Below, piece by piece: positions 18,030-32,518 of a stretch of DNA of 64,000 bases. A program made the position numbers and the translations under genes. Origin of the DNA: Eledone cirrhosa. Taxonomy: Eukaryota. Position 1 is the first letter of the stretch. Every line of letters begins with the position of its first letter. Below the pieces are notes generated by a model. That model made no database searches. It worked only from the letters and a program-made list of their open reading frames with translations, and had not been told where the DNA came from. The stretch is from contig OZ024745.1 in NCBI GenBank assembly GCA_964016885.1, positions 17,484,001-17,548,000 of the forward strand, read 5' to 3'.

Positions 18030-18080
18030 AGTTTCAGATGATGCCGATAAGGGTGAAAGCAGCGATTCTTTGCTTAAACT
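18030..18080 (+). ncRNA. Hammerhead-like motif with CAGAUGA core, in a deleted pLTR copy (17860-18100)
   Basis: agttt-CAGATGA-t-gcc-gataa-ggg-t-GAAA-gca-gcgattctt-tgc-TT-aaact; homologous to 28980-29030. Confidence 0.65.
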
Positions 18081-19304
18081 TTAATCTGTTATTTTAATAA
18101 ATATATATGTATATATATATATATATATATATATATATGTGTGTGTGTGTGTGTGTGTGTGTGTGTGTGTGTGTGTGTGTGTGTGTGTGTGTGTGTGTGT
18201 ATACATATACAGAGAGATAGAGAGAGAGAGAGAGAGAGAGAAAGAAAGAGGAGAGAGAGAGAGAGAAATAGAGAGAGTGAAAGAATATACCTTTTTTAGT
18301 AGTAATTGGATCGTTAAACGCCAACGTAATTGTTAGTTGTTTTTTCTTTTTTTTTTTATTTATATGTGACAAATGATGTATGTAAAGCTGATTGATATAT
18401 TTAATATAGTTCTTCTATATATAAACGTAAACTGCTCTTCCATTAAAAGGGCAGGAAACGCATGTTAAAATCTAGAAACATGCTAATCTCACCAATCCAA
18501 TGAAAAGTCCGGAATTAACTAAACCGATTCTATGGATGTACAATGAAATGCATTAAACCGCCTAATCCGAGTTTTTTCTTGAATAAAACCATGCCCCCGA
18601 GATATCAATTTTCTCCTTCAGTTAGTGAAGATCAGTTGACCAATTTAAATGGGGTGATTAACCTGTTTATAACACTATTATATAATGCATTTCTGCAGGT
18701 GTAGCTGGCAGAATCTTCCGAATATCTGCGAAATATTTTCTTAAAGTAACCTTTAAGAATAAATTAGCAATTGCTGTCAATCTCACAACAAATTGTCCAT
18801 TTTAAGCAGTCCAGTTTACAATAGACAGCTTCGTCCATTGACGATAAAATGTGTTTCTGTTGATAGATATGCATACGATTTCAATTATGTTATAAGGAAT
18901 TCCTGTATACACACAGAAAACTATTTATCAGAAATTATCCCTCCTTGAGTTTTATTTTCATAAGATAACGACACACATATACATCGTGTCTTTTGCTGTT
19001 CTTTTCACTTGCACACAGAGACAATTATATCTGACATTACGTAAGTATAATATAGTAAACAGGCGAACAATTGGTCGCACTTAAAGTGAATGTTAACTTC
19101 AATAAACTAAAAACGAGTGATTCATTCGTGAAGAACCAATCAATAAATGAAGTATTGTAAATAAATGAAGCCAAACTATCGTAGCATACATATTCATTCT
19201 AGTAACGATGTACAGAAACAAATATACTAGCTCTATATATTTGAGAAACTCAAAATATTGTATTGTGTATATCAAAACATTCACCATCATAATTTGCCGA
19301 TAAA

Positions 19305-19520
19305 GGACGGTGGATTGGCAGTATCGGTAAAGCCTAGAAGAATAAGTTTTGTGGCATATAGTTACATACATTTATCTTCTGAATTCAAAGTTCACCGAAT
19401 TTAGATTTGCCCTTCTTCATTAGGGGATAGATAAAATAAATTGTATTGAACTAAGGTGGAGTTAATCGATTTTTCTCTTCTCCCAAATTGTTGGTCATGT
19501 GCCTACACCGAAAGCCATTA
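19305..19520 (+). mobile_element. tRNA-derived SINE, diverged copy
   Basis: ggtggattggcagtatcggta...ctgaattcaaa...tttgcccttc...gataaaataaa...ggtcatgtgcctacac. Confidence 0.7.
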
Positions 19521-22020
19521 TATTGAGACGATGATAAGACATCCACGTATAAAATAAAATACATCTTACTAAGCATTTAGTCAACATTAAGGGGAATTAT
19601 GATGTATCTTTTAATAATTATAAATTTAAATCTAAGACAATTATAAATAAAATTCCAATTTGTCTCCCTTTATACGAGAAGGTACGATGGTGTTATGTAT
19701 ATATACTACATCACCATGTAGATTTCCCCCAAAGTTACAGGATGATATGTGTATTAATGGAAAGCATCAGGATAAATTTTGTAGATATTTATATTTGCAG
19801 CGCAGTTATTACTAGGAAACAATATTGTTCTGAACTTCTGGCTATTCGTGAGATCATTGCACACGGTTTATGATGTATACTGTTTTAGCACTTATGTTGT
19901 GAACATTTGTAGAAAATATAGATCTGTTTAATGATTGCTGGATTTTTGGTAACTCAAGAAAGGTAGAGAATAAAAATAAAAATTGAAATTAATTTGAGCA
20001 ACATATAAAATTTGCTCGGCTTCTAAGTTCTATGTGTATCCCTATATATGTGTGGTAAATACGACATAAGTGGTGTGAGGCTGGCTACGATGATGTTTGT
20101 GTGTAGGTTTATGGTTGTCCATTTAATTTTATATTATGTGAATGTACATACGTGTACGTAGAACGTGAATCTGGCTACAGTTTGTAACAGAAAGTGGTGA
20201 CCATATCTGAAATGTTGCCATAAATAACGAATATACATTAAAGGTAGACGTATTTTATGATTTAACAAAATTGATTTTACTTCTACAGTAGCATATGGTG
20301 GGGATTTTGAAGTGAGTATAATTTTAGACTTTGCATAATAAAGTCTCATGCGGAAAGTAGAGAATGACTGCATATACATTAAGAGAAGGAACATGACAAA
20401 AGAGAGGTAACTCTGATGTGAAATAAATATTTCCCTTCGAAAATAGCTGCAGAAAAAAGTATACTGAAAGTTTGTCTAACGCATACATGTACATTGCCAA
20501 CATATTATCAATATATATCTATGTTGTATTAACATATATGCACACACGCTCGAGATAAGATACATTAAACTGTGTAAAGTACTGTTTGGTGCCAGTGTGA
20601 AGGTCTATATATTTATATAAATATAGCAGGCATATCGACGTACTTGGCAGCCGATAAGATGAGAATGTTGATGTGGAGAGGAAAGGGACAGAAAGAAGAA
20701 AATAAGATGAGAAAGTCCACAGGAAATCATGACAATAGTATAATCGTGTTCAGAGGGTTGATGTTGGCCTGGTAGTCGTAAATCTTCTTTTGTGTTTGGA
20801 AGGGTCCATATCAATTGAATGAGTCATATATTGAGAGAAGTTATAGCCGGGATTGTTTGTTATAAAGTAAGATATGATGTATTGCAAATATTTAAAGTAT
20901 TACTAAATTAGAAGGGGAGGTTAAACCCTAAAACATCTAATCTATATTTCTCCAAGGAAATATTTGTTAAGGCATATCAATTCCGTCATTATCCTGCTTC
21001 CATAGTTCTTTCTAATTCTTTCCCTTCCTTTTCCCCTAGAAATGTTGCAAAACCTCGATCATGCAAGTCTTTGAATATTCAGCTAAATATATGAGTGAAC
21101 ATTCATAGCATGCAGTTGTGCAAGTGTCGTTAACCCATGAAAGCAATGATTGCATATGAATTATTGTGAGTTCTAATAATAAATAACCATTGGATTGTTT
21201 TCCATATAGATGTGCTCCTTTTTCTTCCACTATACATACAAACATTTGCACTCACGCAACACGATCACACATACACAGAATTACGAACACAAAATTACCA
21301 AAAACGTGTAGGCAAAAACGGTAAACCTGAGCCAAATAATATATCTATCTAATGTTACAGTTATTATCTTCCAAGTATTTTTCCTCGAGCAACAACGGTT
21401 ACTGTTGCTATAGCGTATTTGTTCCACATAGACAATAATTTTGAAAAATAAAACAAACAACTCTGATGGTCATTGAAATATTGGCAGTATGGCTGACGAA
21501 TATAGCCATATGAAACTGCGTTATGTTGAATTTTAGGGAAATCTGAAAAAAAATATAAGCCAAAGTAAAGTTTCAAGAATTCATTAACGGAAAACATGAA
21601 GTATGAACAAATTTATCTCGCCGTGCATCGCTCAAACTGACGCTCAAAAATATATGAACGGTGTGAAAACATTTGTGTATAACAAACATATGTAAGTAAG
21701 TATTAATAGAAAACGAAGCAAAACAATCAGCCAGTAAAGGAATATATACTTAATGGAAATTGTCTACTTCTACACTGTGTGGCAAAATCTGCATGTCAAG
21801 TATATAGGGAGTTTAACGGGAGGTTACTGTAGGTTTACCCAGCTGAACACTTAATGTTTAGGTTCACGTCAGTAGCGCGGTGTAGAGGTAAACAGAGTGT
21901 AAATATGAGAGTACAAGGACCATTTGTTATATCTTCATTACGTTTATTGATTGGTGACGCGCGTTCACTATTGGTCATCTCGAAATTTAGTCCGTATCGA
22001 TCTAGCCCCACATTCGTTTA

Positions 22021-22295
22021 TTCTAAATAGAATATTAGTCTAATGACTCATTTTATACCATAAACGTGTCTTTGTCTTTGCAAGAAATTGTTGTTCTCGC
22101 TCCACATAACGACGTAATTATCCTAGGTTTTTGCCGTTCATTGCAGGGAACGTCTTCACGAACCAAAGTATCGTCTTCCTGCATTCTGTCCGTTGTACCG
22201 TTTTTCGAAGTATTTACTTCTGCGTCCACAGATTATTTTTTTTTATTTCAGAAGATCCCGTTAAGGGTGATAACAGCGATTTTTTGCTTTAAAAT
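22021..22295 (+). mobile_element. Solo pLTR of the 25.7-29 kb PLE family with a degenerate CAGAAGA hammerhead
   Basis: Colinear with 28617-29030; ends in cagaaga-tcccgttaagggt-GATA. Confidence 0.8.
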
Positions 22296-31097: not shown

Positions 31098-31670
31098 TAA
31101 TTATATATTATTATTATTACTCTTTTTCCATTTCTAATTACCTCATGTACTTTCTCCTCCGCTATATATATATATATATATATATATATATATTGTATGC
31201 CCTTTGTGTTTGTGTAGCCTCTGCGCACCCTCTGCACCATACTATCGACGCCACCCCATCTATGGTTCAGCTAACCACCCGACTCCCGTGAATGAATATG
31301 ACCGCAGCTAGTAAACAAGGACCCACCCCCCACCCCCACCCCCGCACCAACATTAGACTTATCGTCCCCTACTTTTGCTCTTTACTCTCTTTACTCTTTG
31401 TTCTTGAATGTTTGGTTGGTAGAGTCCATAACACCAATCAAACCCCTTTTATAGCTCTGACGTAAGGAAGAAACATTGTAAGCCAATAAAAATCTTTTGA
31501 TGTTGTAGACGCTCTTGTGTTCTTTTTCATATATATATATACATATATATATATATATATATATATATATATATATATATATATATATATATATATATAT
31601 ATATATATATATATTTACATATATATATACGATATTAAATAAATGGAAACTATATTTATAAAACCATATT

Positions 31671-31736
31671 TATTTCATTATATATATTTCAGGGATATCA
31701 TATTAACAATATGCTATGCCTTCCTCAGACAAAATA
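31671..31736 (-). ncRNA. Type I hammerhead ribozyme
   Basis: Reverse complement: tattttgt-CTGAGGA-aggcatagcatatt-gtt-aatatgatatccct-GAAA-tatata-TA-atgaaata. Confidence 0.78.
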
Positions 31737-31876
31737 CAATATAAACAGTTTTATAGATAAATAGATTTGACATACCGTACAACATCGACTTGTATTTGAA
31801 AAGTTGAGAGTTATAAACTCAAAATAGTCTTTTACAATTAAATAGCTCAAGGAAAGGAATATTTCCGAGCCGTGTA

Positions 31877-32518
31877 ATACAAATGAATATATGAGAGGGA
31901 TGTACGTTGATACAAGTATACATGTGTTTGTATTGCAAATGACCAAGTTGGCTAGGTTGAAAAATACTAATTTAAAATAATACGGTTTGACTGTCTCATT
32001 TTAAAATAATAAATCAATAAAAACAAACCTATATTGGCAATGGCCGTGATACCCGTACAAATTCTAAATTTGTTTCGCAACGTAAAAGACTAATTTGAGT
32101 TTATAACTCTACATATAATATTCTCGGCTCCATACGTAGGATAATTTCCGTCCCATAAAACCGGCTGCTATTTTTAGCGGCACGAGTATGGGACGAGTTA
32201 AGCGCCGTGACACATGTCGTTCAACAACACATTCTCTTAAGTATTTTGAAGTGAAACTTACCAATTTCTGGATACCCGCAGAAGAGCACAGGAATAGTAA
32301 CTTTCACTTAATTGTTGCGAAACAAATTTAGAATTTGTACGGGTATCACGGCCATTGCAAATATAGGTTTGTTTTCATTGATTTATTATTTTAAATGGAG
32401 ACAGGCAAACCGTATTAATTTCAATTAGTGTTTTTCAACCTAGCTAACTTGGTCATTTGCAATACAAACACATGTATACCTGTATCAGTGTTCATCCCTC
32501 TCATATATTCATTTGTAT
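31877..32518. mobile_element. Fold-back non-coding unit with ~205-bp inverted arms
   Basis: 31877-32081 is the reverse complement of 32314-32518; the inversion breakpoint lies inside hammerhead stem II. Confidence 0.85.
32271..32347 (+). ncRNA. Type I hammerhead with CAGAAGA (U4A) core
   Basis: gatacccg-CAGAAGA-gca...tgc-GAAA-caaatt-tag-aatttg-TA-cgggtatc. Stem I is a perfect 8 bp; stem III is palindromic. Confidence 0.82.

Follow-up and report, generated by a model that had tools for sequence, protein, structure and literature searches.

Hammerhead ribozymes in the end repeats of Penelope-like elements (PLEs) are slow (PMC4209133), and they may or may not serve these elements, cleavage having been dispensable in one in vitro system. 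In a reconstituted Penelope-type element, the hammerhead was reported to cut only with protein (PMC11167929). Among natural departures from the CUGA turn of the hammerhead core, a viroid variant with C in place of U at position 4 (U4C) has been described as slow in vitro and sufficient in vivo, and rescue via tertiary contacts has been proposed (PMC3088659). Here we describe hammerhead motifs carrying A at position 4 (A4, or U4A) in a 64-kb stretch of the microsatellite-rich, 3.0-Gb genome of Eledone cirrhosa (assembly GCA_964016885.1, contig OZ024745.1, positions 17,484,001 to 17,548,000), which is referred to as the window. A preliminary description of this DNA had proposed four such motifs, all of which were located where it had placed them: we assign those at 18035, 22249 and 28985 to family A, and the motif spanning 32271-32347 to family B.

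A4 is the family state in both families. Family A was counted over the whole genome with a 20-nt pattern and sorted by the base at position 4, which is A in 23,817 of 24,102 matches (98.8%); the other 285 matches carry C, G or U in roughly equal shares (of the first 100 listed, 32 have U), a distribution that fits decay of copies once inserted. Another count used 140 unselected 10-kb loci (1.4 Mb) and recognised copies by their 3' half alone; of the 34 copies so anchored, 29 read CAGAAGA and one CUGAAGA. For family B, a pattern with A or U at position 4 gave 679 matches and one with C, G or U gave 42; by base, 714 genome matches comprise 672 A (94%), 33 C, 7 U and 2 G. The reversed patterns gave 0 matches, against 679 for family B and 23,817 for family A, and some core positions are fixed by the search patterns themselves. 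Fixation of A4 in both families, as claimed in the preliminary description, is thus borne out, and the check set in advance, whether the consensus reads CUGA, returned a consensus with A4 in each. A CUGA-ancestral copy within family B was considered and rejected, the U4 copies read being decayed members of an otherwise A4 subfamily. A-to-I editing would not restore U at this position. In other respects both families have the features of a type I hammerhead, a three-helix junction with an open stem I, seen with covariation in B and by pairing only in A, and C3, G5, A6, G8, A9, G12, A13, A14, A15.1-U16.1 and H17 are present as family majorities in A and B. As both lack U4 of the CUGA turn, they are filed as hammerhead variants and not as canonical members.

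This state likely arose twice, once each in A and B, since the two families show no homology and the relatives of each keep U4, in agreement with the earlier view of two independent families. Between A and B there is no shared sequence above chance words (best E 0.21). A looser pattern with U4 gave 922 CUGA matches in the genome, and 10 of the 12 loci fetched align with units of family B (67-77% over the longest matches). In a tree of 26 of these units (hand-chosen rows, midpoint root), 15 A4 or C4 rows split from 11 U4 rows on a branch with 100% support, and four of the five C4 rows are nested within an A4 subfamily, while non-U4 copies among the sister lineages are scattered singles (85 matches, part of which are family B copies). 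For family A, the two nearest reverse transcriptase (RT) lineages in the genome have U3-U4...A8 cores (group SH-aLRT 97%; the tree, a quick one, was built from 33 partial rows, all of them unnamed proteins or genomic fragments). One PLE with an RT among the nearest to family A lies in the window and carries at its 3' end, at 47113-47209 (-), a hammerhead with a U3-A8 core and a 54-nt stem-loop II. The relatives of family B (L283-L294) form a diverse superfamily, to which the 922 pattern matches are assigned. Its non-coding units are ~500 nt long and combine a CUGA hammerhead with an extended duplex between a leader and loop II. A possible quasi-palindrome conversion from an upstream UUCUG can also be seen in A and in subfamily B1 and is weak in the other B subfamilies.

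The family B motif of the window is a type I hammerhead (32271..32347, +) with a predicted cut after 32339 (position 17). Its stem I, GATACCCG, pairs 32271-32278 with 32340-32347 (8 bp) and is followed by the core CAGAAGA (32279-32285, A4 being 32280), a stem II base of 3 bp (GCA/UGC, 32286-32288 and 32316-32318) under a 27-nt insert, the GAA (32319-32321) and stem III (32322-32338, 7 bp with a 3-nt loop). The preliminary description had called all helices strong and stem III a 7-bp palindrome; the 8-bp stem I and the 7 bp of stem III stand, while the stem II base has just 3 bp and stem III is a near-palindrome. The copy is slightly decayed, and the span 32271-32347 excludes the 22-nt leader (32249..32270, +), predicted to form a ~19-bp irregular duplex with loop II (32289-32309), a pseudoknot to the hammerhead. 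Its folding z is -2.6, equalled by 3/200 shuffles, and position 17 is A, where 32/33 aligned family B rows (two of the 33 being duplicates from overlapping loci) have C, a GUC site.

Compensatory stem changes together with the conserved leader duplex speak for selection on the family B motif. One stem I pair is matched in 71/77 copies, as C-G in 34 and U-A in 37, and a stem III pair switches from A-U to G-C. Over 14 rows, 97.4% of cells are paired and two pairs have changed on both sides, although these rows were hand-picked and the accompanying shuffles take no account of relatedness, which weakens the case. For the leader duplex of family B, predicted at ~19 bp with a 6-9 nt linker, 98.9% of cells are paired over the distal 7 bp, and in 24/26 superfamily members, A4 and U4 alike, the leader-loop II pairing beats all but at most 3/200 shuffles. 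One subfamily carries GCGAAAC twice, and there 17/21 have kept the core copy intact and 3/21 the spare one. The other 11/11 core bases are invariant across three family B subfamily groups that are 9-20% apart; because the search patterns fixed some positions, the conservation test was rerun with these excluded, and 31/33 core and paired sites are conserved compared with 219/291 elsewhere (p = 0.008). These observations bear on the explanation that there was no selection after the change, A4 having arisen in a master copy and ridden along, to which we give a very low probability. It fits the single star-like burst of family A, and the subfamily counts are small, but it misfits the compensatory pairs, the conserved leader duplex and the decay of the spare GAAA copy in family B. 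As a separate observation, duplication of a GAAA-stem III segment gives one family B subfamily (L064, L066-L074, L169-L175) a stem III of ~30 bp, and most of its copies read carry C4, though they were picked for C4.

The family B unit is ~490 nt long in full copies (about 490-540 nt), non-coding, inserts at (TA)n and ends in (TA)n. In the window it spans 32082..32518 (+), contains no open reading frame (ORF) and has lost its 3' end in a TA run; it adjoins an inverted, 5'-truncated family B 3' part with its tail (31807..32081, -), whose 205-nt arm is 94% complementary to 32314-32518. Copies elsewhere are likewise 5'-truncated, more-than-unit tandem (joint at ~483-490 nt), or inverted with one fixed end. 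Three sequencing runs of unspecified kind, from one sample, contain known variants and the tandem joint only and are not independent evidence. No linked ORF was found in the loci examined and no parent element, none of the ORFs adjoining family B in four of them (L165, L166, L167, L172) being identified as a parent. The element at L166/L167 was ruled out, as it has its own CUGA hammerhead with family B inserted beside it, and a DNA transposon with terminal inverted repeats was rejected, the length of the inverted arm being variable with one end fixed.

Family A is carried by a Penelope-like element of the Hydra clade (25875..29054, +) that ends in (TA)n. Its RT is frameshifted, with an open stretch at 25875-27053 (+), and is followed by an endonuclease region up to 27933 and a 3' untranslated region of ~1.1 kb. 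The assignment is by motifs read by eye in the translation, which has RWR for RWK, DKT, a CxCX5C linker and a C-terminal endonuclease region; the element also shows (TA)n targets, 5' truncation and tandem or inverted copies. A Pfam search of its translations gave no match, and neither a scan of metagenomes for relatives of its protein nor one of solved structures gave any. In its 3' end repeat, this long copy has a hammerhead (28980..29039, +) with a predicted cut after 29025, the core CAGAAGA (28985-28991, +) with U10.1.U11.1 and a 3-bp stem II, and a stem I of a 5-bp proximal and a 9-bp distal part (the latter at 28964-28972 and 29031-29039, +). A 5'-truncated copy (18013..18089, +) has the core CAGAUGA at 18035-18041, and an older fragment (22026..22295, +) has CAGAAGA from 22249. 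Each of the three is decayed elsewhere, the one at 28985 by A13G, that at 18035 by a broken stem II pair and that at 22249 by A14U and a damaged stem I, and none of them, taken alone, folds better than its shuffles (z 0.2 at 18035, -1.0 at 22249 and 0.4 at 28985). Since family A is one homogeneous, star-like burst, its copies offer no means of testing covariation. Several copies (L083, L095, L100, L128, L187) begin at the first bases of stem I, possibly a preferred stop of reverse transcription.

How position 4 behaves beyond these two families was surveyed in the 1.4 Mb of unselected DNA, a small sample, with a descriptor. It gave 168 hits compared with 6 in reversed DNA, 21 of the 168 being family A, among the most numerous in the sample. 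With any one core change allowed, clusters defined as at least two loci and thresholds set by the authors, 18 multi-locus clusters were obtained, of which 14 are mostly canonical (CUGA or U3-A8), two are U4A, one is U4C and one, lying in a LINE-like coding frame, is spurious; the reversed control gave one cluster. Position 4 is the only one replaced family-wide among the 18 clusters (twice by A, once by C), and three fixed changes on one of nine positions would be expected about 1 in 80 times if all were equally free. The U4C family (CCGAAGA; L163:4752 +, L271-L282) has 4,159 genome matches, with C4 in 99 of the first 100 listed. A satellite (L164) and an A15.1U cluster were rejected as low-complexity or coding chance matches. 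In the window itself, canonical CUGA copies lie at 25216 (+), 22704-22719 (-), 31728 (-), 40261 (-) and 41973 (+), the one near 22710 (-) being decayed, and elsewhere (L134:281-3381, -) eleven tandem 310-nt units with a CUGA hammerhead in each make up a typical retrozyme array.

Fixation of A4, U4 in the relatives, the conserved rest of the core and covariation in B lead us to lean towards the reading that the A4 motifs in these Penelope-type elements still self-cleave slowly, aided by their periphery and possibly by protein. A tandem or read-through transcript would fold the motif, and an occasional cut after position 17 would release or circularise the unit RNA. The RNA used for insertion would be uncut, or would have been rejoined at the cut site, because the insertions run through that site. 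Position 4 would then be the weakest core constraint once tertiary helices hold the fold, so that A or C might be tolerated there, whereas G5, G8, G12, A13 and A14 would not be replaced. The wider proposition is that U4 is dispensable in natural full-length hammerheads, working A4 and C4 forms having become fixed on three or more occasions in one genome, and that a class of such motifs in animals has been overlooked since searches demand CUGA; it is offered tentatively, as something short of probable.

Several points weigh against slow cleavage. In a full mutational scan of a type III hammerhead, all single and double mutants of the CUGA turn had low activity, except for a C3-G8 swap (PMC9901934), and in the reconstituted Penelope-type element insertion proceeded normally with catalytic mutants and none of the RNA-seq reads had its end at the cut site (PMC11167929). 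In family B, the six core bases outside the search patterns, taken alone, give p = 0.19, which is not significant. A nested-only model predicts the leader duplex by itself as the fold of lowest energy, with stems I and II opened. The conserved core bases also take part in holding the junction, and their conservation is to be expected from a retained fold no less than from retained catalysis. In family A the hammerhead fold, at -6.0, lies far above the minimum-energy fold, at -15.8, and pairing of its leader with loop II does not exceed that of shuffles (209/300). An alternative is that A4 stops cleavage in practice and that a hammerhead-shaped fold is kept for binding of the RT or another protein, with insertion from uncut RNA. 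The weak CUGA-turn mutants and the dispensability of cleavage for insertion in vitro, in the two studies just cited, both agree with it, as do the A and B insertions running through the cut site, the abundance of family A despite its A4, and the spread of a second change, C4, within family B. We nevertheless hold it to be rather unlikely, because lost chemistry should also free G5, G8, G12 or position 17, none of which is replaced in the three family B groups or the 17 real clusters, and because the three changes fall on one position. Sequence as such cannot separate slow from dead hammerheads.

At the opposite end, A4 hammerheads could be as fast as canonical ones, the leader-loop II duplex in B or the extended stem I in A supporting another geometry of the turn. 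The repeated fixation at position 4 and the strong peripheral helices speak for this. The CUGA sister units, however, have the same leader duplex, so that the duplex was not a novelty accompanying A4. Apart from A7 in most copies, no second change is common to A and B, and no rescue was seen among the double mutants described in PMC9901934. We therefore regard fast cleavage as improbable. What hammerheads do for PLEs is open to direct test here, as family B (A4, C4) and its CUGA sisters of the same architecture are matched natural pairs. Should the A4 RNAs prove to cut, a wider hammerhead consensus and wider search descriptors would be required, and the part played by U4 in full-length ribozymes would have to be reconsidered; should they prove not to, a fold that does not cut has spread in families of up to 24,000 copies, which would argue for a structural or protein-binding role.

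The preliminary description expected such variants to be missed by standard searches, and this holds for descriptors demanding CUGANGA. Rfam gave no hammerhead among the 150 of 204 window matches listed, and none for families A and B when three loci and two short stretches were searched. A4 is not what makes Rfam overlook these forms, since it also missed two canonical CUGA relatives used as controls. No natural U4A hammerhead was found in the literature covered, which included passages of PMC6765202, PMC8490949, PMC7229834, PMC3376415, PMC12192606, PMC11014351 and PMC6155905; coverage was incomplete, and an earlier report may exist.

Other features of the window include a further PLE at 11187-17989, with weak Pfam matches to RVT_1 and GIY-YIG and an inverted partial copy, and a long array of 39-47 nt repeats at 55844-63800. 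Directly after the family A fragment at 22249, the segment 22310-22560 has a tRNA-like head (Rfam 28.5 bits, just below the cut-off) and is probably a short interspersed element (SINE).

Of the described systems, family A most resembles the Hydra-clade PLEs (Craig et al., 2021; PMC8557442), sharing with them an RWK-like motif, DKT, CxCX5C, the endonuclease, (TA)n targets and a 3' type I hammerhead. The U10.1.U11.1 opposition of family A is found in 14/26 Hydra rows of their File S2; all 26 rows have CUGA, while family A has CAGA. With the PLE end-repeat hammerheads (Cervera and De la Pena, 2014; PMC4209133), A and B share the type I topology and the multi-copy truncated, tandem and inverted arrangement, and U3-A8 variants occur both there and in this genome. 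The motifs of their Fig. S3, unlike A and B, have U4 in 56/56, the descriptor having demanded it. With stems III of 5-7 bp, A and B are not minimal dimer-only forms. The layout of family B, truncated, tandem and inverted with one fixed end, matches that described for PLE insertions. Like the non-LTR retrozymes (Cervera and De la Pena, 2020, PMC7229834; bioRxiv 10.64898/2026.07.22.740005), family B is non-coding, has one type I hammerhead and forms seamless partial tandems exceeding the unit length; it differs in its size (~490-540 nt compared with 170-400 nt), its mostly single or partial tandem and inverted copies, its PLE-like tail and its A4 core. The natural variants of Perreault et al. 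(2011; PMC3088659), U4C, U3-A8, A6C and U10.1.U11.1, show tolerated core variation, as here, and some of their hammerheads have a leader-loop II pseudoknot like that predicted for family B. U4A is not named in the portions of their text covered. Their variants are rare, whereas in Eledone cirrhosa whole families, with hundreds to tens of thousands of copies, have the change fixed.

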